Shown one piece after another: positions 5,173-49,586 of a DNA stretch of 64,000 nt. This DNA comes from a virus. The DNA lies in the IMG/VR virus record IMGVR_UViG_3300045988_159943, positions 96,309 to 160,308 of that record; one strand, written 5' to 3'. Both the position numbers and the translations under genes were made by a program. How positions within the stretch are numbered: position 1 is the first letter of the stretch; each line of letters begins with the position of its first letter. The notes beneath the pieces were generated by a model. The model ran no database searches. It saw only the letters and a program-made list of their open reading frames with translations, and was not told the origin of the DNA.

Positions 5173-5487
5173 TTAACCACACTCACATTCAGAAAATGTA
5201 ATCTCATACAAAGCTTGTGGCCCCATAGGAAGATCTCCAATATAATCATCTCCACAATACACATATGCAGTGTCTGGTAGATAACAAATATCAGGCTGAT
5301 TTAGTTTGCCGCACCATTCTTTAAAAGCTTTATAGTCAGCCTCGTCAATTACTCGCTGGATTTCATTTCGCATGTCAGGGGGCATCATGTGATGGTACCA
5401 GTAATAGATAATGCTGATTTCTCTGTCAGCAATATTTGTATCTAGAATTAGAGGTGGGTGCATAGATAAAAATTCTCGTAATGTCAT
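5173..5487 (-). CDS. hypothetical protein (104 aa)
   Basis: ORF track; RBS AAGGAGAATATATTCTATG on minus strand. Confidence 0.5.
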   Translation of the reverse strand: MTLREFLSMHPPLILDTNIADREISIIYYWYHHMMPPDMRNEIQRVIDEADYKAFKEWCGKLNQPDICYLPDTAYVYCGDDYIGDLPMGPQALYEITFSECECG

Positions 5488-5499
5488 AGAATATATTCT

Positions 5500-5630
5500 C
5501 CTTAATAAATAATTTTGTATTGTATATTATATTATAAATATATATAAATATTTAATTACTCTATAGTTTATATATATCCCTTATATATTTATATATAATA
5601 TATATAATTAATATAGGCTCCAGGCCGCCG
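5500..5630. repeat. AT-rich block (TATATA-type tracts) followed by a GC clamp ggctccaggccgccgggcc; origin-like
   Basis: Direct reading: >85% AT over ~100 nt with reiterated tatatat/ttatat units, then a short GC-rich palindromic segment. Confidence 0.4.
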
Positions 5631-5737
5631 GGCCAAGAAAAAGCGTTAGCGTCAAGAAAATAAAATTTAATTTGAGCCGCAAGGCGAAAATTAAATTAGA
5701 GCGTTGTTTTGGCCGTAGGACAAAATAATGCGGGATA

Positions 5738-5770
5738 GTTATCTTATAGTTATCTTATAGTTATCTTATG
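5738..5770. repeat. 3 tandem copies of 11-bp iteron AGTTATCTTAT
   Basis: agttatcttatagttatcttatagttatcttatg read directly. Confidence 0.8.
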
Positions 5771-5785
5771 TACTCCTATTTTGAT

Positions 5786-5850
5786 ATAGTACCCTACTAT
5801 AGTTTTTATATAGGGGGGTACTATATAGTTTTTATAGTGGGGACTCTATA
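5786..5850. repeat. 2-3 copies of ~20-bp repeat (c)TACTATAGTTTTTATA(g/t)(g/t)GGGG
   Basis: ccctactatagtttttatatagggggg / tactatatagtttttatagtgggg read directly. Confidence 0.7.
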
Positions 5851-6164
5851 AATAGGTAGGAGTTTGGATCTTCAGAGAAGTCATTTTTGATGAGATAGCC
5901 CTTTTGTTTAAGTTCTCGCTTTGCGGCAAAATAGGCTTGTTCAGACATGTGTACTTTAGAAATTGCATCTTGTTTACTGAGATAGAAGTCTTCTTGGATT
6001 TCTTGGAAGCTGCCTAAGTAGATGTAAAGTTTGAGGGCATTTTTGCTTAGGGTGTTTGTTGCGTTAAAGAGAGCGTCTTTGTTATAGATGCCAAATTTGT
6101 TGTTTTGGTTTCTTGGTACGCTCTGGAATATGATGTGATTTTGGTTGGTAAATAGTTTTGCCAT
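5832..6164 (-). CDS. putative replication initiator / replisome-organiser-like DNA-binding protein (110 aa from MAKLFTNQ...)
   Basis: ORF track ORF 5832..6260 trimmed to ATG with GGAG RBS. LSKNALKLYIYLGSF... weakly resembles phage replisome organiser/DnaD N-terminal region; lies beside iterons. Confidence 0.35.
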   Translation of the reverse strand: MAKLFTNQNHIIFQSVPRNQNNKFGIYNKDALFNATNTLSKNALKLYIYLGSFQEIQEDFYLSKQDAISKVHMSEQAYFAAKRELKQKGYLIKNDFSEDPNSYLFIESPL

Positions 6165-6558
6165 AGTTGTTTTGCTCCTTGTAGTGTAATAATTTTGTAC
6201 TGTAGGAATTATAACATAGTTGAGAAGTATTGTCAATATATGTGGTGGGATTTTATGCAATGTTTTGTTGGTAATATTTAGAGTGAGGGAGATAAATGAT
6301 AGGTATTTTTGTGGAAAAGTTATAATTTAATGATAAGAAATTGTTGTTGTTTTACGATGATTTATTTTAAAAGTGAGATTTTTTAAAGAAGGAGAGGTGG
6401 ATTTAAAATGAATTGTTATATTTTATGGCATGAATTAATGATTGATTTTTATTATAAATGAGCATTCTGTGTGGAAACAATGTAATTTTTAAAAGGGTGT
6501 AATAAGGGGGATTTTTCAGTCAGTGTGTGAAAAAAACACCCTATAGTCTAACCAAATA

Positions 6559-6583
6559 AACCACAACATATTGTGGTTTTTTC
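6559..6583 (+). terminator. intrinsic terminator-like hairpin (aaccacaa-cata-ttgtggtt + T6)
   Basis: 8-bp perfect stem, 4-nt loop, TTTTTT tail. Confidence 0.5.
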
Positions 6584-6679
6584 TACCCCAATACACTATA
6601 TATTGTGGGTTATTCAATAATTCAAACAAATACATATTTGTTTTACTTTTCCCTAGGATGTGGTATTATATGGGTGTCC

Positions 6680-7300
6680 CAGGGGACAGGACATAAAACA
6701 AAGCCCCAACCCGAGGAATCGGGTGTTAGCTTTGGGAACAAAGCGAAAACTGTATTACAACAGTAATACAGTTGTACCTTCCACCAGGATGAAAAGTAAA
6801 TAATATGTCACTGCCGGGATATAGCTATGACCATAGGAGGGGTCTGTCCAAAAATGGAAAGCTATCGGTTGATAGGGAAACAACTATCAATATCTCCCAT
6901 TACGATTGACGGGGGCAGTATAAACATACCCAATATGCTATCCTGGGGCCTAATCTACCCTTGGATAAGTGGGGCCAGGACATAGGGGGCACTCTATGTG
7001 CTACGTCTATGCCTGTAATGTCCGTGCAAAAGCCCATTTCAAACCACTGGATGCGCAGAGTATCCTTTGGGGGTATGCACGTCAAGGCCCACGTCGTGAC
7101 ACCCTTGGGGGATACTATCTCCCAGGGATTAACAACGGCAATGAGCCGTGGGCGACAAAAGCCATAGACATAACCATGCGTATTAGATTTGCATGGTTGG
7201 GTGGTATGTCACCAATGTGTACATACCGTTTTGGTAGGTGTGGGTGTGCTATGGCTAGTAGAACATAATAACTAGAGCTATCGTGTGTATACATGGTAGC
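6680..7300 (+). ncRNA. candidate large structured non-coding RNA (~620 nt), ends at intrinsic terminator
   Basis: ~650-nt island (6640-7310) with higher GC than flanks, no ORF with RBS (three overlapping track ORFs look spurious). Many perfect 7-9 bp hairpins (6751-6772, 6869-6895, 7173-7200, 7209-7233). Possible -35/-10 (ttgttt...tattat ~6640-6672). Terminator at 7273-7310. Boundaries approximate. Confidence 0.35.
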
Positions 7301-7310
7301 TCTTTTTGTT
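7273..7310 (+). terminator. intrinsic terminator (tagagcta...tagctct + TTTTTGTT)
   Basis: 7-8 bp stem, loop cgtgtgtatacatgg, T-rich tail. Confidence 0.6.
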
Positions 7311-7349
7311 GTGTGCTACTATCAGGGTATAGCAATAGGAGGTAATACT

Positions 7350-7583
7350 ATGTTATTAGCAAGCACTCAATTATTTGATATGTGCAATAATTGGATGTAC
7401 CACAACATGGATTGTGTTGATTGGGACATGCTAGCATATTGCTACATCAACAAACACTACTCTTATGATGAAACCATTGACGATGATGGTAATGTACTTG
7501 ATAGCTTTCAAGTTATCACTGTGCATGACCTGCAAAATGCCTGTGATGAAGTAGGCATTGATATTGACTGCATCAATTTTTAA
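7350..7583 (+). CDS. hypothetical protein (77 aa from MLLASTQ)
   Basis: ORF track 7293..7583; AGGAGG RBS 7 nt before ATG at 7350. Confidence 0.4.
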   Translation: MLLASTQLFDMCNNWMYHNMDCVDWDMLAYCYINKHYSYDETIDDDGNVLDSFQVITVHDLQNACDEVGIDIDCINF

Positions 7584-7680
7584 CAACACGCCTATGCCCT
7601 GATAGTAGTGCATAACTACACCAAAATTAGGGTGATGACCTATCATCAGATTGGGCAAAATGCCCAAATAGGAGGAAATT

Positions 7681-8397
7681 ATGAACGCTACCACTACCAT
7701 GAACGAGTACGCAAACGCCATCACTGACAACCGTTGGATGGCTAAGGCACAGTTGGATGCCGACAACATGGGAACCACCACCTGGAAGCAGTATACCCAG
7801 TTGTGCGACAACATCGCCATCGCTTCCTGGGACAAGCTCACTGGACGCAAGGGCGATGACGATACCCTGGCAAAGTCCCTTATCGGCCTCTTTGCCTTCT
7901 TCGGTTGTGATGCCCGTCCCACCGTGGACATGCAGAACCGTTTCCTGCTCTCCTGCGTGACCGTCAAGAGGATGCAGTCCGAAGCCATGAGACAGGCTCG
8001 GAAGAATCTGCGCAGTGCCAAAAACCTGCTCGAAGAGGCCCAGGAATCCATTCCCCTGGATGAAAAGGCCGTGGAAATCTACCAGAACAAGGTCAAGGAG
8101 TACGAAGCAACCGTCACTCGTATGGAGTCCGAGCCTAAGAATGTCTGGTATGACAAGATTCCCATGCTCTCTGCCGACTATAGCCACGCATCCAAGAAGT
8201 GCCGTAAGCTCATCGAGGATGAGATGGCCGATGTCCTGGCCGAGCGTGGACTGATGACCATCGAGGAGAAGTTGGCCGAGAGACAGAGACTGGATGACGA
8301 ACGTGATGGTCGTAACCGTCGCAAGAAGAAGGAAGCCCAGGCCAAGAAGCAGGAAGAGTCCAAGGCCGAGAGCAACAATGCGCCCGAATCCAAGTAA
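7681..8397 (+). CDS. hypothetical protein with KE-rich C-terminal tail (238 aa); GC-rich island
   Basis: ORF track; RBS AGGAGGAAATTATG; ~55% GC. Minus-strand ORFs 7431..8051, 7627..8400, 8178..8498 are GC-driven spurious ORFs. Confidence 0.6.
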   Translation: MNATTTMNEYANAITDNRWMAKAQLDADNMGTTTWKQYTQLCDNIAIASWDKLTGRKGDDDTLAKSLIGLFAFFGCDARPTVDMQNRFLLSCVTVKRMQSEAMRQARKNLRSAKNLLEEAQESIPLDEKAVEIYQNKVKEYEATVTRMESEPKNVWYDKIPMLSADYSHASKKCRKLIEDEMADVLAERGLMTIEEKLAERQRLDDERDGRNRRKKKEAQAKKQEESKAESNNAPESK

Positions 8398-8398
8398 C

Positions 8399-8413
8399 AC
8401 AGTACAAAATTAT
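8399..8413 (+). promoter_or_regulatory. variant copy of conserved leader motif (ACAGTACAAAATTATcgg)
   Basis: Immediately after stop of 7681..8397; followed by weak GC hairpin. Confidence 0.4.
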
Positions 8414-8533
8414 CGGGGGTAGACTCACTCTGCCCCTTTCCTCTCCAAGTAGAACTCCTTGCCGTGGGGGAGAGGCCCGAACCGTAACAGGTCGCCAAGT
8501 TCTACAATAAAAATCTAACAGGAGAAATAACCA

Positions 8534-8691
8534 TGTTCTATCTCGCTCTCGTCGGCATCATCTGTGCCCTTCTCGCCTTGGGGGACTATGCAATCTCCCT
8601 GTTCTTCTATGCCCTCTATCTCTATGATGGGGGGCATCATTCTTTCCGGTGGTATCGTAACTTTATGAGCAACACCACCATTGAATGGTAA
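8534..8691 (+). CDS. small hydrophobic membrane protein (52 aa) MFYLALVGIICALLALG...
   Basis: Hand-translated; RBS AGGAGAAATAACCATG; below ORF-track size cut-off. Minus-strand ORF 8515..8748 rejected. Confidence 0.4.
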
Positions 8692-8769
8692 CGTTGCGTA
8701 GGGCTTTTTAGCATAAAGTTGAAAGGCCTTATGGAGTGTTACCAACAACTCCAGAAAGGATGTTAGCGC

Positions 8770-9219
8770 ATGAAATCTATTCTCTTAGCCCTTGCACTAC
8801 TCTCTAGCGTCGGGGGGCAAATCGCCAGTCCTATGGCCCTTATCAACCACTTCGAGAACGACAACATTGCCGTGATTGAAGTATATGACCATGGGCAAAT
8901 CTATGAGGGCGCTGTGCCCCTCGACCAAATGCCGGGGAGAATCTTAAGCATTGGAACAAACATCCCTGTCCATTCCATCGCTGCCCAATGCACAACTCCC
9001 GTTTTTGACATAGACGGAAACATCTACTTCCGCTTTGACGGAAACGAGGAAACCTGGACACTTTCTGATGATGAATTGGGAATCATCCCGGAAAAGGGAA
9101 TGTATTATACCCTGTACGTCTCAGACAACGGAACCACATCTTGCACCCACGGAAATGATTGCGAATGTTATATCTATGACGACTTCTTTATCTGCCTAGG
9201 GGACGCAATCCCTTGGTAA
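8770..9219 (+). CDS. secreted hypothetical protein (149 aa; signal peptide MKSILLALALLSSVGG)
   Basis: ORF track; RBS GAAAGGATG...; N-terminal hydrophobic signal-like segment. Confidence 0.55.
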   Translation: MKSILLALALLSSVGGQIASPMALINHFENDNIAVIEVYDHGQIYEGAVPLDQMPGRILSIGTNIPVHSIAAQCTTPVFDIDGNIYFRFDGNEETWTLSDDELGIIPEKGMYYTLYVSDNGTTSCTHGNDCECYIYDDFFICLGDAIPW

Positions 9220-9302
9220 ATAGCATTGCTAGAGTCCACAAGGGAAACTTTGTGGGCTTTATGGAGTGTTATCCACCAAGACAACCGAAAGGAGAATAAT
9301 CT

Positions 9303-9584
9303 ATGAACGAAATCTATCGTGGTGCTTTGGTCTTTGCCAAGAAAGGGAATCTCAAGTCCTTCTATGAATCCAAACTCGTGAAGGCCGGCCCCTATGCCCT
9401 TGCGGAAAGGGAAATCCAGTGCGTCGTACTCTTTCGTTGGGACAAGAACAACCTTTTCTGTCGCATCAAGTGTCCTGAAAACCCTCTTCCCATCAAGGGA
9501 GAATTTCAGGCACCTTCCCTGAAAGTAATCGCGCAATGGTTCATTAATAATGAATGGAAGTTCAAGGCAAAAATCCCTCTCTGA
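9303..9584 (+). CDS. hypothetical protein (93 aa)
   Basis: ORF track; RBS AAAGGAGAATAATCTATG. Confidence 0.5.
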   Translation: MNEIYRGALVFAKKGNLKSFYESKLVKAGPYALAEREIQCVVLFRWDKNNLFCRIKCPENPLPIKGEFQAPSLKVIAQWFINNEWKFKAKIPL

Positions 9585-9835
9585 GTGTTGTTGCGTGTCT
9601 GCAAGTATCCCCCTGCTTGCAGGCACAACTAGAGCATTTAGAAAGGCAAATGTGGCAACGTAAATTTCCAAGAGAAATCTTTGGACGTTGTTTTTGGCCT
9701 AAGCCAATCAAATGCTTGACAACTGAATATGATGAACAAGTAAGCAAAACCTAAACCAAAGGCCATAAGGCAAGGTTGATTTGTGGCCTTTAGTGAAGGC
9801 TTCGCGCCAAATTTATAACAGAAAGGAAAATCGCT

Positions 9836-10075
9836 ATGTTCGGAAATGATCCTAGCACCGCTATCACCACCATCGTCGCAGACACTAACGGAAACCACTG
9901 GTATGTAGATTCTCGACTTACCTTTGACCATGGCCTTGAAACCATGGTTTTCCCTTGTGACAGCAACGGAAACGTGACCTCTTGGATTGATCGCTACGCC
10001 GAGTGGCACAATGATGTCAATCAGATGCGTGAGCGTCATACAGAAATCGTTTCCCACATCGAAAAGTACATCTAA
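9836..10075 (+). CDS. hypothetical protein (79 aa)
   Basis: ORF track; RBS GAAAGGAAAATCGCTATG. Confidence 0.5.
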   Translation: MFGNDPSTAITTIVADTNGNHWYVDSRLTFDHGLETMVFPCDSNGNVTSWIDRYAEWHNDVNQMRERHTEIVSHIEKYI

Positions 10076-10092
10076 GCGAAAGGAGTATCGCA

Positions 10093-10386
10093 ATGAACCT
10101 CTACTATAAGCTCAAGACTGGTCTTTGGACTCGTCGTTACAATCTCGAGAGTGCATTTGAGATTTGCACGGGAAAGAGATACTACGGCAACGAAAGGGAA
10201 TTTCTGCGCTGGTTGCACTCTCTTCTCGGAAAAAGCATCATTGCTGCCAAGAGAAGCGATGATCCCACTTTGGTGGACGAGCTTCTTGCAAACGGCCAGA
10301 ATGTTTTGGCTTGCGCAGCCTACCGTGATTGCCGCGGCTGCACTCTCACAGAAGCAAAGAAGGCGATTGAAAACAGAAAGGAGTAA
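10093..10386 (+). CDS. hypothetical protein (97 aa)
   Basis: ORF track; RBS AAAGGAGTATCGCAATG. Confidence 0.5.
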   Translation: MNLYYKLKTGLWTRRYNLESAFEICTGKRYYGNEREFLRWLHSLLGKSIIAAKRSDDPTLVDELLANGQNVLACAAYRDCRGCTLTEAKKAIENRKE

Positions 10387-10511
10387 GGCAAATGGAAATC
10401 ATCCTTGGATTATTCATCTCGGCAATCATCATCTACATCTGTGACTAAGCATCCCAACACCAACCAAAGACAAAATAAGCCACAAAACGTGGCAGAAAAG
10501 GAGATATTACT

Positions 10512-10976
10512 ATGAATACCAACATCATGACTATCGGGAGCATCGCCAACATCATTGCTTATGGAAACCACAACAACAGTCACTGCAAGGCAGTTCTTGC
10601 AGTAGAACCTCGGCTTGCTTTCACCTCTATGACTGATTTGGCCGAGCATTTTGGAGTGGCCCAGGGTAATGTATCTTTTGCCGTCAAGACTGGTGGTACC
10701 ATCAAGGGAGTTCACGTTGTGCTCCTCTCCGACACCAACAAGGCAATGGAAATCATTATGGCCCAGGCTCACAAGGAACGTGAAGCCCAGGAAGAAGCCC
10801 GTCGCAAGGAAGAGAGACGGCTGGCTAAGATTGAGAAGGAAAAGCAGAAGCGTAATGCTCTCATCGCTCGTACCAAGGAGCGTATCGAAAAGCATGAAGC
10901 TAAGGTAACAAAGGAAACTGAAATCATTGCCTCCCTCAAGGAAGAACTGGCCAAGCTCGAAAGCGAAGCTAAATAA
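10512..10976 (+). CDS. hypothetical protein with KE-rich coiled-coil C-terminus (154 aa)
   Basis: ORF track; RBS AAAGGAGATATTACTATG. Minus-strand ORF 10410..11048 is spurious. Confidence 0.55.
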   Translation: MNTNIMTIGSIANIIAYGNHNNSHCKAVLAVEPRLAFTSMTDLAEHFGVAQGNVSFAVKTGGTIKGVHVVLLSDTNKAMEIIMAQAHKEREAQEEARRKEERRLAKIEKEKQKRNALIARTKERIEKHEAKVTKETEIIASLKEELAKLESEAK

Positions 10977-10998
10977 CAACTGAAAGGAGATAAAACCT

Positions 10999-11109
10999 AT
11001 GAAAACAGCATTCAAAATCCTTCTGCACCTGTTCCTGACCATTGCCACCTACGGAGTTTGGTTGATTATCCTTCTCATTTGGTTCTTGGTCAAGGGAATC
11101 GAAAAGTAA
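10999..11109 (+). CDS. small membrane protein (36 aa)
   Basis: Hand-translated MKTAFKILLHLFLTIATYGVWLIILLIWFLVKGIEK; RBS AAAGGAGATAAAACCTATG. Confidence 0.35.
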   Translation: MKTAFKILLHLFLTIATYGVWLIILLIWFLVKGIEK

Positions 11110-11203
11110 TTTTAGCGCTGTTTGGGAGCACAGAGTTCTTTCCCCCTGCTCTGTGCTCCTTAGAGAGTGCTAAACTCAATAAGCCCAAAAGGAGCAAGAC
11201 AAA

Positions 11204-11338
11204 ATGGAAAATATTTATCCGTGTGATGAACTTGGCATCTGTCCCTTCAACGCAGAAGGAGGCAATGATTGCTACAACTATTGCGGGCTTGGAGCAGACG
11301 AAAGCAAACCTGAAAATTATTCCGAAGAGGAGTAAATT
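11204..11338 (+). CDS. small Cys-rich protein (44 aa)
   Basis: Hand-translated MENIYPCDELGICPFNAEGGNDCYNYCG...; RBS AAAGGAGCAAGACAAAATG. Confidence 0.3.
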
Positions 11339-11368
11339 ATGCTATAATATTCAAAGGGGTGATGCTTT

Positions 11369-11599
11369 ATGGATACAGACATAAAGGAAACGCTTGATAC
11401 AATCTTACAAACAATGTCAAGCATGGACAAAAAGCTCGACGCAAAGTTCGGAGCAATGGAAACAAAAATAAGCTCAATGGAATCCAAAATTAACGCAATG
11501 GCAGAAGATGTTCATGACACAAAGCTAACCGTAGATGTTATCTCTGCGGTACTAGAACGACAAGGCAAAGACATAAGCAAACTCAAAATTATAAAATAG
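11369..11599 (+). CDS. hypothetical coiled-coil protein (76 aa)
   Basis: ORF track. Confidence 0.45.
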   Translation: MDTDIKETLDTILQTMSSMDKKLDAKFGAMETKISSMESKINAMAEDVHDTKLTVDVISAVLERQGKDISKLKIIK

Positions 11600-11609
11600 C
11601 CTTTTAAGG

Positions 11610-11640
11610 GAACCGTGTAAATCATGGTTCTCTTTTTTGT
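11610..11640 (+). terminator. intrinsic terminator (gaaccgtg-taaat-catggttc + TCTTTTTTGT)
   Basis: 8-bp stem with one G-U pair, 5-nt loop, T-run; closes the GC-rich cassette. Confidence 0.65.
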
Positions 11641-11741
11641 TTGCAGAAAAGGAGTTAATCATGAACAATACAACACAGGAATATCAAACTTGGGATCACA
11701 CCTTCAGCGCCCAATTGAGAGAAGGTAAGAGGTAAAATAAA

Positions 11742-11912
11742 ATGGGAATCGTGCTAATCGTAATCGGAATCATTTGGATAATTGGAAGCCTTGTTACGAA
11801 ACCAAACAACCTTGCCGCTGCATTTTTATTCAAGGTAATTCCATTTATAACCGCAGCTATCGTTACAATCATTGGCTTCTACTACTCTGGAATCATCACA
11901 ATTTCTATCTGA
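11742..11912 (+). CDS. small membrane protein (56 aa)
   Basis: Hand-translated MGIVLIVIGIIWIIGSLVTKPNNLAAAFLFKVIPFITAAIV...; RBS-like AAGAGG upstream; preceded by a 24-aa ORF at 11661. Confidence 0.4.
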   Translation: MGIVLIVIGIIWIIGSLVTKPNNLAAAFLFKVIPFITAAIVTIIGFYYSGIITISI

Positions 11913-11984
11913 GGTATAGCACTAAAAGAAAATAAAGGGGGTGGTGACATATGATTTAATTTAATTCAACACAATCAACCACCG

Positions 11985-12001
11985 ACAGTACAAAATTATT
12001 G
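11985..12001 (+). promoter_or_regulatory. conserved leader motif ACAGTACAAAATTATTG
   Basis: Exact 17-mer, 31 nt upstream of ATG 12033. Confidence 0.5.
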
Positions 12002-12032
12002 AAATGCGAAACGCATAGAAAGGAAAATTGTT

Positions 12033-13598
12033 ATGGACGCTATCTTAACTAATATCGTTGACGAATTCTGCAACGAACTCTCTGAACGCAACTACCCTTA
12101 CACCCGTCTCGCAGTTGAACACATCATCAACGAATGGTACAAGGCAAAGAAGCCGCTCATTGACTTGCTTTCCAAGCATCCTAACTGGAACCCTGAAAAG
12201 TTCATGATTCAGTTTGACTCTGATTTTAGCCGCAAGCCTGACACAAGTACGGCATGTAATTTTCTTAACTGGTTGGACAGAAATACTAACATTCAAGACA
12301 TTGTTACGAAAAGTGATGAATACTACTACGACAGAATTTTAGTCGATGACATGGACCGTTGTATGGTGCATACAACTTATCTCCAAGAAGAAGACATTTC
12401 TTACATTGAACTCATTAACAACCTTGATGAATCCTTCCGTTTCCGTCCCGGCATGAAGGTAACCAAAGTCATGCGTAAAATCTGTGAGCATTATGGTTGG
12501 ACTAAAATCATGGGCACCGAGTATAACAGACATGGAGAACAGGTTGAATTCAACGCTTTTGAGCGTGAATATGCAAAGTACTGTGATGCAATGTCTCCTC
12601 TTAAGGTAACTCGACATACCTGTATCAGTCTTAATCCTCTGGATTATCTCCTGATGTCCAACGGAAACAGTTGGCGCAGCTGTCATTACATTGATTACTT
12701 CGACGATCATCCTGGTGAATATTCTTCTGGAACTATTAGCTATATGCTTGATGAAACTTCTATCGTATTCTACACTGTAAACGCTTCCTATGATGGAGAC
12801 AATATTGAGCTTACTGAGAAAACACAGCGCCAGATCTTTGGATATAATGATTGCCAGATCATGCAGTCTAGAATGTATCCTCAGAACAATGATTACAATG
12901 CCAAAAACATCTATGAAGACTTCCGAAATATCATGCAAAAGGTAATTGCAGACTGTCTTGAAAAGCCTAACCTGTGGGTGCGTCGCAAAAAGCATCTTAA
13001 TGTAGTGCATGGATGTGGTGCAACCTGCTATCCTGACTGGGAGTACAATGATTTGTGCAGCACCTCTGTACTTAAAGAGAAATCTGGACTGGATTTAGTA
13101 TCCATTGTCTTGGGTACAACTCCTATTTGTGTCGAATGTGGAAAGACACACAATAAGGAAGGCAATATTAACTGTTGTCGTGATGGATACTGTTGTGAAG
13201 ATTGTGGTTGTTACATCTCTGAAGATGATGTAATTTGGGTTGGAGATTATCCTTATTGTAGAGATTGTGTGTCTTGGTGTGATTGTTGTCAGGAATGGAC
13301 AAGAGACGAAATGTACTACATCGAAAGTGAAGACAGATCGGTGTGTGAATATTGCTTGAATGAATATTATGCCTACTGTGCACACTGTTACACTTATCAC
13401 AACATGGATGAGACATTCTACGACGAAGACCGTAGTGAATATTTTTGCCCGGATTGCTTCGAAGAACTCTATACAGAATGTGAAAACTGTGGACGGATTG
13501 TGCGCAGAAAAGACTTAAACGAAGTCCATAAAGCCAATGGAGATGTAGTATTCATTTGTGACGAATGTTACGCAGAGGAGGATGAAGATAATGAGTAA
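12033..13598 (+). CDS. hypothetical protein with C-terminal array of CxxC zinc-ribbon motifs (521 aa)
   Basis: ORF track; RBS GAAAGGAAAATTGTTATG. C-terminal 170 aa carry >10 CxxC/CC pairs (CVECG, CEDCGC, CRDCVSWCDCC, CEYC, CAHC, CPDCF, CENCG, CDECY). Internal ORFs on both strands spurious. Confidence 0.6.
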   Translation: MDAILTNIVDEFCNELSERNYPYTRLAVEHIINEWYKAKKPLIDLLSKHPNWNPEKFMIQFDSDFSRKPDTSTACNFLNWLDRNTNIQDIVTKSDEYYYDRILVDDMDRCMVHTTYLQEEDISYIELINNLDESFRFRPGMKVTKVMRKICEHYGWTKIMGTEYNRHGEQVEFNAFEREYAKYCDAMSPLKVTRHTCISLNPLDYLLMSNGNSWRSCHYIDYFDDHPGEYSSGTISYMLDETSIVFYTVNASYDGDNIELTEKTQRQIFGYNDCQIMQSRMYPQNNDYNAKNIYEDFRNIMQKVIADCLEKPNLWVRRKKHLNVVHGCGATCYPDWEYNDLCSTSVLKEKSGLDLVSIVLGTTPICVECGKTHNKEGNINCCRDGYCCEDCGCYISEDDVIWVGDYPYCRDCVSWCDCCQEWTRDEMYYIESEDRSVCEYCLNEYYAYCAHCYTYHNMDETFYDEDRSEYFCPDCFEELYTECENCGRIVRRKDLNEVHKANGDVVFICDECYAEEDEDNE

Positions 13599-26552: not shown

Positions 26553-26977
26553 TGCAAGAAGGATATTTTGTTTATAACAATATAAAATACCCAACAGGAA
26601 CTGTCGTTGCAATTAAAGAAATTTATCAACATAAAATCCGAATGGCAACATTCATTTACCATGACACCAACAGAGACACTTATGTTTTTAAATATAGAGA
26701 TAATGGCCAACAATGGATTGTGAGTTCAAAAGATTTCTTTAATAATTTACAATATGTTACGGATAAATTTGATTCAAGTGCAAAAATTCCACAAAGAAAA
26801 CAACTAAAAGATAGGCACATCAATTCATTGATAATTGGATGGGTTTGGTACATATTCCTTATGGCTATATTCTCAATTTTCAATGGTAGATTTGCAGCTT
26901 GGATTATATTATCGGTTTGTTTCTTTAAATGGAGAAAAAATAAAATTGAAAAGGAAGGTTATTATGTCGAACGGTAG
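26552..26977 (+). CDS. hypothetical protein with C-terminal TM segment (141 aa)
   Basis: ORF track; TAATG overlap with upstream gene. Confidence 0.5.
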   Translation: MQEGYFVYNNIKYPTGTVVAIKEIYQHKIRMATFIYHDTNRDTYVFKYRDNGQQWIVSSKDFFNNLQYVTDKFDSSAKIPQRKQLKDRHINSLIIGWVWYIFLMAIFSIFNGRFAAWIILSVCFFKWRKNKIEKEGYYVER

Positions 26978-27944
26978 ATATGAAAAAGAATTAAGATTTG
27001 AAAATAGAACGAAGGAAAAATTAAAAACAATGCCACCTATTATAACTGATTATTATTATCACCTTGTTGGTGGAGGTAGTTCTTTTACAACTGTAGACAA
27101 TTATATTAATTATATTAACTCTTTTTTGAAATTTACATTTAAAAGATGTCGTGATGATTTTTACTTAAGTGTAAGACCATTACATATTAATAAATATATT
27201 GCATCTCTTAGAACTAAAGTTGTTAATGGACAAGTGCAAAGAACATCTGATAGTATTAAAGCTCTTCATTGGTCTGCACTCAATTCTTTCTTTCAATTTT
27301 TAGTTCCAGATTACATTAAAGAAAATCCGGTTGCTGCAACAAAACGTCCTCGTATTAAAGATAATCCAAATGTTACCTATTTAACACAAGAAGAAATTGC
27401 AGCAATAATGAATAATGTAAAAGAAAATGCAAATCCTAAAATGAAAAATAGAGATCTATGTATTTTAAAACTTGGATTTAGCACTGGACTTCGTGTTTCT
27501 GCAATTGTACAAATTGATTTAGACGATATTGATCTTGTGCATAACCAAATTCGTGTCACTGAAAAGGGAGACGTTGATCATTATGTTTTAATTGGAGAAA
27601 ATCTCAAAGAACAAATTAAATTATGGATTAAAGATAGAAATGAGTATTTTAGTGATGTAATTACCAATGCATTATTTGTTTCTCAAAAGAAAAGAAGACT
27701 TAGTACTGATTCTATTGGAAAATTAATAGCTAAATATACAGAAAATATTACTGATAAGCATGTTACTCCACACGTAATGAGACATTCTTGCGCAACAAAT
27801 CTTTATTCTCAGACTGGAGACATTTATCTGTGCGCTAGCCAATTAAATCATAAAAATATTGCTACTACACAAAGGTATGCAGAGATTTCTAAGGCAAGAC
27901 AGAAAGAAGCTGCAACATTACTTGATAATTTAATTGACAAATAA
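26964..27944 (+). CDS. tyrosine recombinase / phage integrase family protein (326 aa from MSNGRYEK)
   Basis: ORF 26835..27944 trimmed to ATG after AAAAGGAAGGTTATTATG. C-terminal catalytic signature GLRVSA (R), HVMRHSCAT (HxxR), TQRYAEIS (Tyr). Confidence 0.75.
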   Translation: MSNGRYEKELRFENRTKEKLKTMPPIITDYYYHLVGGGSSFTTVDNYINYINSFLKFTFKRCRDDFYLSVRPLHINKYIASLRTKVVNGQVQRTSDSIKALHWSALNSFFQFLVPDYIKENPVAATKRPRIKDNPNVTYLTQEEIAAIMNNVKENANPKMKNRDLCILKLGFSTGLRVSAIVQIDLDDIDLVHNQIRVTEKGDVDHYVLIGENLKEQIKLWIKDRNEYFSDVITNALFVSQKKRRLSTDSIGKLIAKYTENITDKHVTPHVMRHSCATNLYSQTGDIYLCASQLNHKNIATTQRYAEISKARQKEAATLLDNLIDK

Positions 27945-45801: not shown

Positions 45802-45887
45802 GCCGGGATGGTGGAAATGGTAGACACCTGGGACTTAAAATCCCATGGGCTTGACCCGTGCCAGTTCGAGTCTGGTTCCCGGCACCA
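45802..45887 (+). tRNA. tRNA-Leu (anticodon TAA), CCA encoded
   Basis: Manual fold: acceptor gccggga/tcccggc, anticodon stem tggga/tccca, loop cttaaaa, long variable arm, T-loop ttcgagt. Confidence 0.7.
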
Positions 45888-45995
45888 AGCTGAGTTGACC
45901 TTTAGTATTTTGCAAACGCAGGCTGATATGCGGTAGGAAAAATACAGAGCCTTGGAAAAGTTTAAAAGAGAACACCTCTTTCTGAGGCTTTATAT

Positions 45996-46080
45996 GCTGG
46001 AATGATGGAATTGGTAGACATGATGGCCTCAAAAGCCATTGCAGAAATGTGTAAGGGTTCAAGTCCCTTTTCCAGCACCA
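45996..46080 (+). tRNA. tRNA-Leu (anticodon CAA), CCA encoded
   Basis: Acceptor gctggaa/ttccagc, anticodon stem atggc/gccat, loop ctcaaaa, long variable arm. Confidence 0.65.
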
Positions 46081-46128
46081 TTTCCCCCTTATATAGAATC
46101 CTGGGTAAGATTTAAAACTGCCTGATAT

Positions 46129-46204
46129 GCTCCCATAGTGAAGTTGGTAAACACGGAAGCCCTTCAAGCTTCAGGCACGGGTTCGAATCCCGTTGGGAGT
46201 ACCA
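46129..46204 (+). tRNA. tRNA, anticodon loop CCTTCAA (reads as Glu-TTC but with C at position 33)
   Basis: 76 nt; acceptor gctccca/tgggagt (G-U at 1-72), anticodon stem gaagc/gcttc, T-arm acggg-ttcgaat-cccgt, ACCA end. Confidence 0.55.
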
Positions 46205-46205
46205 T

Positions 46206-46283
46206 TGCGGGGTAGAGAAGTTGGTCATCTCACCACCCTCATAAGGTGGAGATCGTGGGTTCGAATCCCACCCTTCGCAACCA
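46206..46283 (+). tRNA. tRNA-Met/Ile2-type (anticodon CAT), elongator-like
   Basis: Anticodon stem ccacc/ggtgg, loop ctcataa, T-arm gtggg-ttcgaat-cccac; one extra nt between T-stem and acceptor in my fold, so ends +-1. Confidence 0.55.
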
Positions 46284-46286
46284 AAT

Positions 46287-46361
46287 GGCCCATTAGTCAA
46301 GTGGCTAAGACGCTGGATTTTCATTCCAGAGGCAGGATTTCGATTATCCTATGGGCTACCA
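46287..46361 (+). tRNA. tRNA-Glu (anticodon TTC)
   Basis: 75 nt; acceptor ggcccat/atgggct, anticodon stem ctgga/tccag, loop ttttcat, T-arm aggat-ttcgatt-atcct. Confidence 0.6.
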
Positions 46362-46448
46362 AGGACTTTTACGGCGAGTCCTATATAAACTACTGCCGAA
46401 CGGGGGTTAGCGCACCTGAGACGTACCGATAAACAAAAGCGCATAAAT

Positions 46449-46587
46449 AGGGGTATAGCCAAGTGGTAAGGCACAGGACTTTCGTGAAATCGTATAAGTA
46501 GTACACTTTATGAAGAAGTATTGGTTCAAATCCAATTTTCACGACCAGACTCCTGCATCGAAGGTTCGAATCCTTCTACCCCTGCCA
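46449..46587 (+). tRNA. interrupted tRNA (~139 nt): canonical halves split by a ~65-nt insertion in the anticodon loop (Glu-TTC or Gln-TTG depending on junction)
   Basis: 5' half aggggta-ta-gcc-aagtggtaa-ggc-a-cagga pairs with 3' half tcctg-catc-gaagg-ttcgaat-ccttc-tacccct-g-cca (perfect 7-bp acceptor, 5-bp anticodon stem). The 46479-46550 insertion carries its own 7-bp helix cgtgaaa/tttcacg plus T-arm-like attgg-ttcaaat-ccaat ending ACCA (46483-46547). Confidence 0.45.
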
Positions 46588-46684
46588 TTTTTAAAGTTAA
46601 AGTAAAAAGATACATATAAAAGATTCCGCATTTTATTCTATGAATAATGCTGCTTTAGCTATCATTTGTTAAAGGAAGATAGCT

Positions 46685-47107
46685 ATGGAAACAAAAATAT
46701 GTACTAAATGTAATCAAGAGTTGCCAATTAATGATTTCAATTGGAGAGACAAGAAAAAAGGAACAAGAAGGTCTGAATGTAAATACTGTCATACTAAATA
46801 TATGAAAGAAACGTATGAGACAAAAAGAAGTATTGTCAGTGATATTAAATCACAAATGAAATGTAAAAAATGTGGAGAAAACAGATATTATGTATTAGAT
46901 TTTCATCATTTAGACCCTAGTGAAAAAGAAGCAACCGTTGCGAGAATGGTTAGTAATAATTATCAATTAGAAAAAACATTACAAGAGATAGAAAAATGTA
47001 TAGTTCTTTGCTCAAATTGTCATAGAGAATTTCATTATTTAAATGACAGTTATGATATTACTATTGATGATTATTTAAATGATAATTACCTTGCCAGATG
47101 CCAATAA
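46685..47107 (+). CDS. HNH homing endonuclease (140 aa) inside tRNA array
   Basis: Zinc-ribbon CTKCNQ...CKYCH, HNH core DFHHLDP...K...LCSNCHREFHY; RBS AAAGGAAGATAGCTATG. Confidence 0.7.
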   Translation: METKICTKCNQELPINDFNWRDKKKGTRRSECKYCHTKYMKETYETKRSIVSDIKSQMKCKKCGENRYYVLDFHHLDPSEKEATVARMVSNNYQLEKTLQEIEKCIVLCSNCHREFHYLNDSYDITIDDYLNDNYLARCQ

Positions 47108-47127
47108 TTTTTAAGGAGGTACAAAAA

Positions 47128-47400
47128 ATGGCTCGTAACAAGAACAAAGACCCTATCAAGGCAGCAGTAACTAAGATTTCTGATGATATTAGCAGTCTTT
47201 CTGCAAAAAAGGAATATGCGGTTTCCGTATTTCGTAGTACAGCAGACCAGTTAGCTTCTATTAATTCTGAGATGGAAAATAAAATGTCAGAACTTGATAC
47301 TTTAGCTACTTTTATTCAGCATCAGAAGGATATTGCCTCTAAGGTTGTATTAGACAATGAAAATGTACGAGCCAAGATTCTTGAAATTATTGGTGAGTGA
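47128..47400 (+). CDS. hypothetical protein (90 aa from MARNKNKD)
   Basis: ORF 47098..47400 trimmed to ATG after TAAGGAGGTACAAAAAATG. Minus ORF 47322..47621 spurious (covers tRNAs). Confidence 0.45.
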   Translation: MARNKNKDPIKAAVTKISDDISSLSAKKEYAVSVFRSTADQLASINSEMENKMSELDTLATFIQHQKDIASKVVLDNENVRAKILEIIGE

Positions 47401-47439
47401 CATAATAAGGGGGATAGAAAACTATCCCCTACCAAATAC

Positions 47440-47527
47440 GGAGGTGTGGCCGAGTCTGGTTTAAGGCATCTGTCTTGAAAACAGACGAACGAAAGTTCCG
47501 TGGGTTCAAATCCTACCGCCTCCGCCA
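47440..47527 (+). tRNA. tRNA-Ser (anticodon TGA), CCA encoded
   Basis: Acceptor ggaggtg/cgcctcc, anticodon stem tctgt/acaga, loop cttgaaa, long variable arm. Confidence 0.7.
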
Positions 47528-47530
47528 TAT

Positions 47531-47606
47531 GTTCGATTAGCTCAGCTGGGAGAGCACTTGGTTTACACCCAAGAGGTCGGCGGATCGTGCCCGTCATCGA
47601 ACACCA
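47531..47606 (+). tRNA. tRNA-Val (anticodon TAC), CCA encoded
   Basis: Acceptor gttcgat/atcgaac, D-arm gctc-agctggga-gagc, anticodon stem cttgg/ccaag, loop tttacac. Confidence 0.7.
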
Positions 47607-47667
47607 GCGGAAAATCCACATAACGCAGGTTGGTAAACCTTGCTTCGGCTAAAGCTTCCAATTAAAT

Positions 47668-47742
47668 GCAGGTGTGGTGTAAAGGCTAACATTTCTGCCT
47701 TCCAAGCAGACGATGCCAGTTCGATTCTGGTCACTTGCTCCA
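47668..47742 (+). tRNA. tRNA-Gly (anticodon TCC), CCA encoded
   Basis: Acceptor gcaggtg/cacttgc (one G-U), anticodon stem tctgc/gcaga, loop cttccaa, T-loop ttcgatt. Confidence 0.65.
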
Positions 47743-47745
47743 TAT

Positions 47746-47830
47746 GGGGGATTGGTGAAATTGGAATACACTCAAGATTTAGGTTCTTGTGCCGTAAGGC
47801 GTATCGGTTCGAGTCCGATATCCCCTACCA
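47746..47830 (+). tRNA. tRNA-Leu (anticodon TAG), CCA encoded
   Basis: Acceptor gggggat/atcccct, anticodon stem caaga/tcttg, loop tttaggt, long variable arm gccgtaaggcg. Confidence 0.65.
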
Positions 47831-47927
47831 CAACCGATGGGGTGGCAACGGGCGGTTGTAAATAATTCTCGTAGCATCCTCTGTGAATAGCGCTATAAAA
47901 CAGATTCAAGGATGGAGCCATCAGTAT

Positions 47928-48008
47928 GGGCGGTTAGCTTAATCGGTAAAGCGTTGTGCGCACGATACAACGAGTTTGGGTATGCAGGTTCAATCCCTGT
48001 ACCGCCTA
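47928..48008 (+). tRNA. tRNA-like element of uncertain identity (possible pseudo-tRNA)
   Basis: Acceptor gggcggt/accgcct, D-arm gctt-aatcggta-aagc, T-arm gcagg-ttcaatc-cctgt are tRNA-like. Candidate anticodon arm ttgtg-cgcacga-tacaa lacks U33 and the variable region is 13-14 nt. No CCA. Confidence 0.3.
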
Positions 48009-48014
48009 TAATAT

Positions 48015-48091
48015 GTCCTCGTAGCCCAGTTGAATAGAGCAATGGCCTTCTAAGCCATGTGTCGAAGGTTTGAGTCCTTCCGGGGATGCCA
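48015..48091 (+). tRNA. tRNA-Arg (anticodon TCT), CCA encoded
   Basis: Acceptor gtcctcg/cggggat (two wobble pairs), anticodon stem atggc/gccat, loop cttctaa, T-arm gaagg-tttgagt-ccttc. Confidence 0.6.
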
Positions 48092-48177
48092 CAGTCGGGG
48101 GTTACAAGCGACTTTAAATAAAAGGTATCCGTGGAGTTGGCAGATACGATAGTCTCCGATACAAAACTGCCATTCAT

Positions 48178-48253
48178 GGGAAGTTAGCTCAGTTGGCAGA
48201 GCACGTGGCCGTTAACCACGGTGTCACAGGTTCGATTCCTGTACTTCCCGCCA
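48178..48253 (+). tRNA. tRNA-Asn (anticodon GTT) with C33, CCA encoded
   Basis: 76 nt; acceptor gggaagt/acttccc, D-arm gctc-agttggca-gagc, anticodon stem cgtgg/ccacg, loop ccgttaa, T-arm acagg-ttcgatt-cctgt. Confidence 0.65.
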
Positions 48254-48383
48254 TATAAAGATACAGATGGATAAGTATCTTTGTAACGGTGCAATTAGTG
48301 AAATATCCGAACGTTCCGTAAGTTTCTGTGTATAGCAGTCATGAATGTGAAACACTGATTCCATCATTATAAAGGAGTAAATT

Positions 48384-48635
48384 ATGCCAAGACCAAGAAA
48401 AGTAAACTCTGAAATTGTAAAGAAACTTCCTTCCTCTGAGAATGGTGTGAGCACTACTTGCGAGGATGTGAATGGGAAGCAGTTTAGAATTTCGCATAGT
48501 TTAAAGACTGGGAAGTTTACACTGTGGGAGATTTTAGATGAAGGATTGAAGGCAGTTAAGTCTGGGGAGAGTACTTATGAATTGTATGAGTTAATTGATT
48601 TTGGAGGAAAAGAAAATGAAGGTTTTGCGTCGTGA
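48384..48635 (+). CDS. hypothetical protein (83 aa) inside tRNA array
   Basis: ORF track; RBS AAAGGAGTAAATTATG. Minus ORFs 47893..48177, 48224..48454 rejected. Confidence 0.5.
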   Translation: MPRPRKVNSEIVKKLPSSENGVSTTCEDVNGKQFRISHSLKTGKFTLWEILDEGLKAVKSGESTYELYELIDFGGKENEGFAS

Positions 48636-48795
48636 TGATAAAGAAGTATATGAAGTTTTTGACATTGTATATACAGACGAAGGAGAACCTAAGTTCTTAG
48701 TTTATATGAATAAATCTTGGGAATTAGTTAGTGCGTGGAGGTTTACTCCAAATTTTTATGAAGATTATTATGGAAATTATGTGGAGTTAGATTGA
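48614..48795 (+). CDS. hypothetical protein (60 aa from MKVLRRDD)
   Basis: ORF 48595 (TTG) trimmed to ATG after GGAGGAAAAGAAAATG. Confidence 0.4.
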
Positions 48796-48798
48796 TAT

Positions 48799-48874
48799 GT
48801 GGGTGTAGTTCAGTTGATAGAACGCATGAGTTGGGTTCATGAGGCCGAGCGTTTGAGTCGCTCCACTCACACCA
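48799..48874 (+). tRNA. tRNA-Pro (anticodon TGG), CCA encoded
   Basis: Acceptor gtgggtg/cactcac, D-arm gttc-agttgata-gaac, anticodon stem catga/tcatg, loop gttgggt, T-arm gagcg-tttgagt-cgctc. Confidence 0.65.
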
Positions 48875-48930
48875 CCTGAGCAAATGGCATAGTGTTATGT
48901 GCGGTTGGCTGACCTTAAGGCTATTGATAT

Positions 48931-49005
48931 GGGAATTTAGCCAAGTGGAAAGGCACTGCACTTTTAATGCAGGTATCAAGAGTTCGATCCTCTTAATTCC
49001 CACCA
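48931..49005 (+). tRNA. tRNA-Lys (anticodon TTT), CCA encoded
   Basis: Acceptor gggaatt/aattccc, anticodon stem ctgca/tgcag, loop cttttaa, T-arm aagag-ttcgatc-ctctt. Confidence 0.7.
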
Positions 49006-49141
49006 ATGATGCTGTGTTGGTTAAGTTAACGTTTGTGTGGTTCAGCTCATTACTTTACTGCTATCTCAGTTAAAAACCTATCGGCTGCAGACGAGGTTCT
49101 TCGGACGCACAGCCTTGGTAGGCAGAAATGCCTACCAATAT

Positions 49142-49217
49142 GCTGGATTAGCTCAGTTGGCAGAGCGACGCACTTGTAATGCGTAGGTCATCAGTTCGAA
49201 CCTGATATCCAGCTCCA
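49142..49217 (+). tRNA. tRNA-Thr (anticodon TGT), CCA encoded
   Basis: Acceptor gctggat/atccagc, D-arm gctc-agttggca-gagc, anticodon stem acgca/tgcgt, loop cttgtaa, T-arm atcag-ttcgaac-ctgat. Confidence 0.7.
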
Positions 49218-49419
49218 TAATAAGGGCCCATGACGACGGACAGCCAGGAGGGTCTGCGCTAATCGTGAAAAGTCTAGCCGATTAGTAGGGAGTAGAGTAG
49301 CCGTGCCCCTAGATTATTCAGAAGTAGTGAGCTGAATATTCAAAGCTGAAAATATATAGTAGTAGAACTGTAACACTAACTGTTTGAAGTATATATGAGT
49401 AGGCCACGGTGAATCCGAT

Positions 49420-49513
49420 GGAGCAGTACCCAAGAGGCTATAAGGGAGCGGTTTGCTAAACCGTTAGGTCGTAGAAATACGATGCGGAGGTTCGAATCCT
49501 CTCTGCTCCGCCA
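49420..49513 (+). tRNA. tRNA-Ser (anticodon GCT), CCA encoded
   Basis: Acceptor ggagcag/ctgctcc, anticodon stem gcggt/accgt, loop ttgctaa, long variable arm, T-loop ttcgaat. Confidence 0.65.
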
Positions 49514-49586
49514 CTTTGTTCATAACACCTCCAAATGTCTCACAATCTGTACCATATTGGTTGACTGTAAAAAGCGGATTAAACAA

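Follow-up and report, generated by a model that had tools for sequence, protein, structure and literature searches.

What is specified by a stretch of about 650 nucleotides that lies between an origin-like region and the first plus-strand genes of a large uncultured phage? The question arose with a first-pass annotation of a 64,000-nt window of phage DNA (positions 96,309 to 160,308 of IMG/VR virus record IMGVR_UViG_3300045988_159943; all coordinates below count from the first letter of this window), in which positions 6640-7310 were proposed, from the letters alone, to encode a large structured non-coding RNA (ncRNA) with its own promoter and terminator. Homologs in related phages, covariation of base pairs and the lack of a conserved reading frame uphold this proposal. 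A conserved, structured, non-coding element is present on the plus strand between a promoter and a terminator, and in the collections searched it is restricted to one lineage of large uncultured phages. Beyond this, we consider it probable, at roughly 60%, that 6674-7307 (plus strand) is a stand-alone ncRNA of about 634 nt that represents a new, uncatalogued family of large (~155-162 kb) phages seen only in metagenomes, and that this RNA is made early and acts in trans.

The boundaries were taken from transcription signals. A promoter scan identifies a sigma-70-type promoter at 6642-6669 on the plus strand (-35 TTTACT at 6642-6647, a 16-nt spacer and a TG-extended -10 TGgTATTAT at 6661-6669), where a -35/-10-like pair had been noted by eye at about 6640-6672, and alignment of the corresponding gaps puts a promoter at the same position in every homolog (TTGACT, TTGACA or TTGAAT, 16-17 nt, TGnTATTAT, TATAAT or TATACT). 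A terminator scan likewise returns an intrinsic terminator at 7274-7308 (plus strand), with a 13-bp stem (7274-7303), a loop of 4 nt and UUUUU (TTTTT in the DNA), in agreement with the one annotated at 7273-7310. Alignment reveals terminators at the matching place in most homologs, with stem sequences that are unrelated between lineages. The 5' end of the RNA is placed from the -10 element (±3 nt) and its 3' end from the U-run of the terminator; the homologous elements measure 470-680 nt, and a search with the covariance model R1 described below finds the RNA as a single copy in the window. Terminator-like hairpins are frequent around the element, with nine within 5400-8000 versus 2.0 ± 1.6 expected from shuffles. 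The base composition had been described as shifting to roughly 50% GC. The shift is real relative to the upstream DNA (30%) and the window mean (37%), but the segment 6640-7310 has 46% GC, which equals that of the downstream coding DNA (46%), and 50% is attained only over 6900-7260.

Relatives of the locus were collected through the protein encoded downstream (238 aa, 7681-8397), which has 30 homologs in a large protein collection, all from metagenome assemblies; the contigs of these homologs are loci L001-L019 and L088-L092. The layout is the same in every locus with enough upstream sequence and consists of a minus-strand gene for ~97-115 aa, a gene-free gap of 1.1-1.8 kb and the plus-strand 230-aa gene. 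By blastn, the gap is homologous to positions 6500-7330 of the window (L001, 72% identity over 726 nt), and about 14 distinct contigs of related phages carry a homologous element at this position. Blocks of 72-80% nucleotide identity are seen where the neighbouring protein retains only 52-67% identity (75-80% for the blocks at 52-56% for the protein). The central motif GTAATTAWRCCGTCAAGC brought to light two more genuine homologs in IMG/VR, L105 and L109, whose contigs measure 162 kb and 155 kb, and a degenerate motif of 29 nt led to the same two contigs. Other motifs were discarded: a scan of IMG/VR with TTGGYAGGTGTGGGTG gave 68 matches, all due to chance by an nhmmer check, a scan with CAGGTGTGGTTGGGTGG gave three chance matches, and a two-block motif gave seven chance matches in JGI metagenomes, four in GTDB genomes and none in IMG/VR. 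A comparison with 50,697 GenBank phages by blastn and megablast, with the region and with the window's first 20 kb as queries, produced no match, nor did tblastn of the neighbouring protein, and searches with the neighbouring protein in IMG/VR yielded no relatives.

Could the segment be a protein-coding or decayed coding region, for example by virtue of a 99-aa open reading frame (ORF) at 6969-7268? It is not free of ORFs, as had been stated; there are ten of 32-99 aa, six on the plus and four on the minus strand, and those of 52-99 aa on the plus strand are what a coding interpretation can invoke. What holds of the original statement is that none of them is conserved. Among 18 homolog sequences the longest stop-free stretches vary in strand, frame and place (the longest in L092 covers 46 aa), and in the closest homolog, L001, each of the three frames is interrupted by stops where the window has its 99-aa ORF. 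The indels that separate the window from L001 (1, 5, 15, 1, 1, 11, 17, 6 and 2, 19, 1, 1, 7, 1 nt) are not confined to multiples of three, substitutions fall on the three codon positions in the ratio 20/31/25 and thus lack a third-position excess, and the 99-aa ORF matches neither Pfam nor PHROGs. With the compensatory base-pair changes reported in the following, a coding function has next to no probability.

Base pairing is best described for the 3' domain (7133-7261, plus strand). Eight distinct sequences were aligned (alignment A1), four helices were proposed by reading the alignment, and the covariance model R1 was derived from them. The helices are P10 (7135-7139/7145-7149), the long-range helix P11 (GCCAUAG/CUAUGGC, 7161-7167/7249-7255), which is 100% paired with compensatory changes in six of its seven pairs, and the conserved and covarying P12 (AACCATGC/GCATGGTT, 7172-7179/7191-7198, with the conserved loop GUAuUaGAcUUG) and P13 (GGTATGT/ACATACC, 7203-7209/7221-7227). 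The G-rich single strand GGUAGGUGUGGGUG at 7233-7246 is near-invariant in A1, and a related G-tract motif occurs in the divergent groups; it might take part in a pseudoknot or a G-quadruplex. On the raw MAFFT alignment 87% of the cells are paired versus 30-46% when the pairing partners are slid, and the model-based alignment raises the value to 92.6%. The window scores 132 bits against R1 (E = 3e-27), and L105 and L109, neither of which was used in model building, agree with the structure at scores of 79.5 and 65.6 bits. When both are included, 93.3% of the cells are paired versus 27-43% slid, 22 of the 27 pairs have changed on both sides, and none of 500 shuffles reaches this result. G-U combinations exceed A-C combinations by 11 to 1 in this domain, which, together with the orientation of promoter and terminator, argues for an RNA transcribed from the plus strand. 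Even with filters off, R1 misses the 3' domain in the divergent loci L008, L011, L012, L013 and L014 (groups 6-8), where large insertions are present. Candidate pseudoknots (GGUAG/CUACC, ACUUG of the P12 loop with UCAAG, and CGG/CCG) were dropped for lack of covariation.

The central domain, also read on the plus strand, behaves similarly: for helices Pa, Pb, Pc and Pe in alignment A3, 91.1% of the cells are paired versus 31-44% slid, and 14 pairs are compensatory. Pa (UAUCC/GGAUA, 6939-6943/6963-6967) is 100% paired with two compensatory pairs, and Pb (GGG/CCC, 6946-6948/6958-6960), which is nested in it and carries the conserved loop (G)UAGUCU, is 87% paired, again with two compensatory pairs. 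The long-range helix Pc (GUG-(G)-GGCC/GGCC-CAC, 6969-6976/7086-7092) spans about 110 nt, encloses a variable central sub-domain and is 100% paired; four of its seven pairs have changed on both sides (GAC/GUC, GCG/CGC, AGCU/AGCU), and L105 and L109, when read directly, fit as well. Pe (CAUAG/CUAUG, 6981-6985/7007-7011), which encloses hairpin Pf (GCAC/GUGC, 6989-6992/6998-7001), is 80% paired in A3, where the window and L001 are out of register, with six of nine pairs compensatory, and it exists in eight sequence versions across the loci (e.g., CCAUACCUG/CAGGUAUGG and GCGCAUUUG/CAAAUGCGC). According to A3, a hairpin CGUGCA/UGCACG with a 47-nt insert (7023-7081) is limited to the window and L001; it also appears in the minimum free energy (MFE) fold and splits the motif GUAAUUAAGCCGUCAAG, which other groups conserve. 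Hairpin Pg (CCCUUGGGGGAU/AUCUCCCAGGG, 7102-7127) is predicted by the MFE fold and has equivalents of differing sequence in L004, L009 and L015, which MAFFT misregistered so that they stand outside the pair counts. The MFE fold of the window recovers P10, P11, P13, Pa, Pb and Pg but not P12 or Pc, and the covariation-based model should take precedence over such a single-sequence thermodynamic fold. A hairpin module resembling GGGGGUAGUCUACC or GGGGGUAGUCU(A)CC recurs three or four times per RNA, most clearly in L004 and L009, and is found in the window at 6836-6860, 6946-6960, 6986-7001 and 7106-7123; this pattern suggests either internal duplication or a repeated binding site.

In the 5' part, MAFFT put the hairpins, including the one with the GGAGG loop described below, out of structural register, so per-sequence folds were used in place of pair counts. 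Hairpin P1 (UGUCC-CAGG-GGACA, 6675-6688, plus strand, as are all hairpins of this part) was read from the alignment; by eye, its stems differ between loci (GUCC/GGAC, GCC/GGC, GUC/GAC), and its GGGG (6682-6685) could alternatively pair with CCCC at 6704-6707. The per-sequence folds give P2 (ACCCGA/UCGGGU, 6709-6714/6719-6724) and P3 (GCUUUG/CAAAGC, 6729-6734/6739-6744), a tandem that re-forms with differing stem sequences in all nine distinct homolog segments folded. The hairpin that follows, AACUGUAUUAC/GUAAUACAGUU at 6748-6773 (exact arms CTGTATTAC/GTAATACAG at 6750-6758/6763-6771), occurs only in the window and in no homolog of the alignment, and the hairpin UUGAUAG/CUAUCAA (6869-6875/6884-6890) is confined to the window and the L001 lineage, with CAACGG/CCGUUG at the corresponding place in L001. 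Four perfect hairpins had been singled out by the first-pass annotation. All four exist, at coordinates that differ by 0-6 nt from those given (they lie at 6750-6771, 6869-6890, 7172-7198 and 7203-7227), and while the first two are the lineage-specific insertions just described, the other two correspond to the conserved helices P12 and P13.

One hairpin of the 5' part deserves separate mention. In the hairpin GACC/GGUC (6829-6844), the loop AUAGGAGG (6833-6840) is similar to a Shine-Dalgarno ribosome-binding site. Of 11 distinct homologs, 10 retain the loop as (U/A)U(U/A)GGAGG, the most divergent groups among them, on stems that almost all differ in sequence. Of the 14 RNAs inspected, only that of L008 contains a CCUCC, as a single non-conserved copy, and because the exposed loop has no conserved internal partner, an external target is suggested. 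Further downstream, the motif UACGAUUGA (6901-6909, plus strand) is conserved in the alignment and takes the form UAUCGAGUGAA in other groups.

Folding energies point in the same direction. The 636-nt RNA has an MFE of -245 kcal/mol versus -195 ± 9.6 kcal/mol for dinucleotide shuffles (z = -5.2; none of 20 shuffles as good), and the two best conserved sub-domains, each compared with 200 shuffles, give z = -3.0 (1/200) and z = -3.4 (2/200); the minus strand of the same segment folds with z = -8.5. The element combines several features expected of an ncRNA gene, namely a promoter and a terminator of its own at conserved positions, compensatory structure (91-93% of cells paired, with 14 and 22 compensatory pairs) and the lack of a conserved reading frame. 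Coding capacity and covariation were among the points on which the first-pass annotation had let its proposal depend; no coding frame was recoverable, and covariation is present.

Does the RNA belong to a family that is already catalogued? The first-pass annotation was reminded of ROOL and GOLLD, and this comparison is apt as to kind, since the RNA is large, ornate and phage-borne, but not as to membership, because the Rfam covariance models remain unmatched. The models it had named for a check (ROOL RF03087, GOLLD RF01998, group I and II introns) gave no match over 6300-7700 even at E <= 10, and the same is true of OLE, raiA and HEARO. At this threshold and over this range, Rfam 15 (4227 models) returned only small unrelated models at chance level (best E = 0.28), at gathering score over the whole window it returned only 17 tRNAs, and in 11 homologous loci nothing covered the element at E <= 0.05. 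Our literature searches found no description of the present RNA. Although its 634 nt, its phage origin and its multi-stem architecture resemble ROOL, it is very unlikely, given these negative searches and the distance of 38.5 kb to the tRNA array, that it is a divergent member of ROOL, GOLLD, OLE, raiA, HEARO or the group I/II introns.

ROOL RNAs average 581 nt and were first found in cow rumen data (PMC5737381); they stem from phage and rumen sequences, are often located near tRNAs, have no known function and form nanocages (PMC5737381, PMC12286853), and both ROOL and GOLLD assemble as RNA-only, homo-oligomeric nanocages (PMC12286853). The present RNA shares with ROOL the large size (634 nt versus 581 nt on average), the many stems and the phage origin. 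Several nested and long-range helices are supported over its 634 nt; ROOL has several multistem junctions and pseudoknots in ~580 nt. It differs from ROOL in failing the ROOL covariance model even at the permissive threshold, in lying 38.5 kb from the tRNA array rather than adjoining tRNA genes, which also separates it from GOLLD, and in heading an early operon behind a promoter that is putatively operator-controlled. GOLLD is likewise an ornate RNA of phages and prophages, and its 3' domain is better conserved than its more variable 5' part (PMC12286853), just as the 3' domain is the best conserved part of the present RNA within groups 1-5; on the other hand, there is no match to the GOLLD model, and GOLLD often exceeds 800 nt and sits by tRNA islands. 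A third comparison is offered by lnc001 of Staphylococcus phage K, an early, highly abundant long ncRNA of 635 nt with its own early promoter (PMC9241854). Length, a large Firmicutes phage (148 kb) and the early setting are similar, but R1 gives no match and the lnc001 locus directly follows tRNA-Met; with no relation in sequence or structure, lnc001 was rejected as a relative. Part of this phage K RNA (L104 1133-1269; phage K 13632-13768, minus strand) scores 43.4 bits against the Rfam DUF3800-I model, whose gathering score is 44.2 bits. In a large survey of viral structured RNAs that drew on IMG/VR, motifs averaged 67 nt (PMC10690425).

The RNA lies directly 5' of, and is co-oriented with, a conserved early gene in every locus, and this raises the question of whether it is instead a cis-acting leader of the rightward early operon, whose terminator at 7274-7308 attenuates or gates the downstream genes by riboswitch-like or factor-dependent antitermination, or which is processed to release the RNA. 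No plus-strand promoter of scan quality lies within 7308-7680 (TTGTTG-16-TATAGC is the only, weak candidate), L004-L007 lack a separate terminator ahead of the downstream palindrome, and self-cleaving ribozymes in the next intergenic spacer of related loci indicate that the early transcript is processed, all of which would suit a leader. Against these observations stand the strong terminator (13 bp + U5) conserved in most lineages, a size of 470-680 nt with long-range helices that is far above that of known attenuators, and the fact that the 230-aa gene has conserved 5'-UTR (untranslated region) hairpins of its own. No conserved antiterminator alternative was evident by eye, no systematic search having been made. 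In addition, an ORF of 77 aa in the window (7350-7583) or of 56 aa in L009 has been inserted between the terminator and the 230-aa gene while the RNA is unaltered. Because of its size, its long-range helices, its conserved unpaired motifs and the insertion of downstream ORFs without change in the RNA, we regard the element as more than an attenuator, and a leader function as a possibility of clearly lower rank than the stand-alone RNA.

Several features of the downstream region may be recorded here. An inverted repeat, GTGCTACTATCAGGGTATAG and CTATGCCCTGATAGTAGTGCAT at 7311-7335 and 7595-7615, flanks the 77-aa ORF; in most related loci nothing separates its arms, which pair into a single long hairpin with a T-run after it in L004-L007, and in the window and L009 an ORF occupies the loop. 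The repeat may serve as an operator or a processing site, or mark a hotspot of gene insertion. The 5' UTR of the 238-aa gene contains, at 7626-7667, a conserved hairpin, TTAGGGTGATGACCTAyCATCA, and, directly before the ribosome-binding site, another whose stems covary (GGGCAAAATGCCC in the window). The 238-aa protein itself falls into no Pfam or PHROG family. Matches to self-cleaving ribozymes are located in the spacer 3' of the 230-aa gene in L088 (3710-3766), L011 (1578-1629) and L004 (4752-4803); one, a type III hammerhead, exceeds its gathering score with 55.2 bits, and the other two, twister-P1-like, stay below theirs (~54 bits versus 67.2, E ~2e-9). The equivalent stretch of the window, 7300-12100, has no ribozyme match.

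The upstream side suggests another explanation, in which transcription of the segment activates a replication origin or primes replication through an RNA-DNA hybrid at the G-rich 3' segment. ColE1 RNA II and the mitochondrial CSBII transcript prime replication by way of a persistent RNA-DNA hybrid, and the former, a structured transcript of ~550 nt near a replication region, resembles the present RNA in having a G-rich segment in its 3' part. Positions 5400-6500 are AT-rich (20-30% GC) with a shift in GC skew, 11-bp tandem repeats and AT palindromes, the divergent neighbour is weakly DnaD-like (E = 2.5e-4) and has weak HTH_36 matches in related loci, the phage encodes its own helicase and primase, and the conserved G-rich tract 7233-7246 shortly precedes the terminator. 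Transcription, however, leaves the AT-rich region rather than entering it, and a phage with its own primase and helicase differs from ColE1 in this respect as well. Covarying helices, G-U pairs and conserved loops would be unnecessary for activating an origin; within 6674-7307 it is RNA pairing and not DNA motifs that is conserved, and nothing points to hybrid formation, an RNase H site or a DNA start. We therefore consider a role as an origin transcript improbable. In the origin-like region itself, the AT palindromes are dense at 5528-5616, three tandem 11-bp repeats ATAGTTATCTT occupy 5735-5769, the GC skew rises to +0.8 at 6200-6500, and a perfect consensus promoter on the minus strand (6236-6208, TTGACA-17-TATAAT with TG) drives the HTH-like gene.

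If the element is a stand-alone RNA, the DNA around its promoter offers clues to its control. An operator-like palindrome, CAAACAAATAcATATTTGTTTt at 6623-6644, overlaps the -35 hexamer; it is present once in the window, with zero copies expected by chance. It is found at the same place in all loci, and its half-sites differ by lineage yet stay symmetric, the two halves having changed jointly (GGGAAAAT/ATTTTCCC, CAAGAAAAT/ATTTTCTTG, CCACTAAAT/ATTTAGTTG). Just 5' of the promoter, two palindromic boxes of the type CACAAyATATTGTG (CACAACATATTGTG at 6562-6575 and CACTATATATTGTG at 6594-6607; direct repeat D2, inverted repeat I24) lie 32 bp apart, and alignment shows equivalent paired boxes in L001, L004 and L012; they are likely protein-binding sites of a switch or an origin. 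A DNA block of about 100 bp that includes both boxes (6495-6600; ATTTTnnAGTCAGTGTGT ... GGTTTT ... ACCCC) is kept even in the most divergent loci and may contain sites for an initiator or a repressor, or may encode a small transcript whose end is the hairpin and T-run at 6558-6585.

Taken together with the structure, this arrangement would be consistent with the following sequence of events. Host RNA polymerase would transcribe the RNA first, at the head of the rightward early region, and a dimeric DNA-binding protein would control it through the palindrome over the -35 element and the sites within 6562-6644. A candidate for this controller is the divergently encoded small protein; several loci show a weak HTH_36 match for it, and PHROG matches to the copy in the window are also weak and include a DnaD-like helicase loader (E = 2.5e-4). 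The RNA would then accumulate as a discrete compact fold and act in trans, as RNA or ribonucleoprotein, in the manner of ROOL and GOLLD. It is a tentative and rather doubtful idea that the exposed GGAGG loop docks the particle on the anti-Shine-Dalgarno end of the host 16S rRNA or on another external partner. Equally speculative is a broader proposal, according to which the RNA represents a new class among the large ornate phage RNAs, with no sequence relationship to ROOL or GOLLD, and is both the very first early product and a self-contained, possibly multimeric particle. Through the GGAGG loop and the G-rich strand such a particle might engage the host translation apparatus, at the anti-Shine-Dalgarno end of the 16S rRNA, or decoy an RNA-targeting host defence; its role would then be to take over the host or to counter its defence, and not to regulate phage genes.

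A number of points weigh against the stand-alone, trans-acting RNA that we favour. Its transcription start, its 3' end and its abundance are all inferred. L004-L007, which have no separate terminator before the downstream palindrome, also fit a leader. Only about 14 distinct sequences are available, and since all of them come from one phage lineage, part of the covariation counted is due to common descent. A-C mismatches exceed G-U pairs by 9 to 4 in the central domain, partly owing to the misalignment of the window and L001, and the strand assignment is therefore carried by the 3' domain and the transcription signals. The 5' third of the structure and any pseudoknots are incomplete in the present model, and in L015 and L018 GAAAGG takes the place of the GGAGG loop. 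The adjacent 238-aa protein was modelled confidently, but the fold comparison was uninformative and no interaction partner was found. Finally, we know of no established function for ROOL or GOLLD, and a statement that the RNA works like ROOL therefore predicts little.

Elaborately structured RNAs of more than 500 nt are very rare in bacteria and phages and comprise the rRNAs, group II introns, GOLLD, ROOL, OLE and few others. Each known large ornate RNA is biochemically unusual, and a further unrelated family would lengthen a short list. The present candidate has the advantages of clear gene boundaries, a defined place in the early programme, a putative operator at its promoter and a conserved Shine-Dalgarno-like loop; it would offer structural biologists a new target and phage biologists a testable early RNA effector. 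Its absence from the GenBank phages searched and its presence on only two IMG/VR contigs suggest that uncultured large phages still hide classes of RNA that protein-centred annotation misses.

As to the phage itself, genes in the window encode a DnaB-like helicase, a primase, a Sak4-like protein, an RNA ligase, a methyltransferase and a tyrosine recombinase. When helicases are compared, its closest relative in culture is Geobacillus virus E3 (141 kb, 29% identity), from which the host is probably a Firmicute; AGGAGG ribosome-binding sites fit this assignment. Sample labels suggest ruminant gut, which could not be confirmed from the accessions. The tyrosine recombinase/integrase-like gene (26835-27944; PHROG 1, E = 2e-50) is located inside an otherwise replication-like module of this 160-kb phage. 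L008 is a 16-kb Logan contig with one end at the predicted 5' end of the RNA, 2 nt before GUGUCC, and several other contigs break inside or just 5' of the element; these breaks could be assembly chance, a genome end or transcript-derived assembly. The 17 tRNA genes form an array on the plus strand (45802-49682) that includes a suppressor-unrelated tRNA-Ile(UAU) and two tRNA-Glu.

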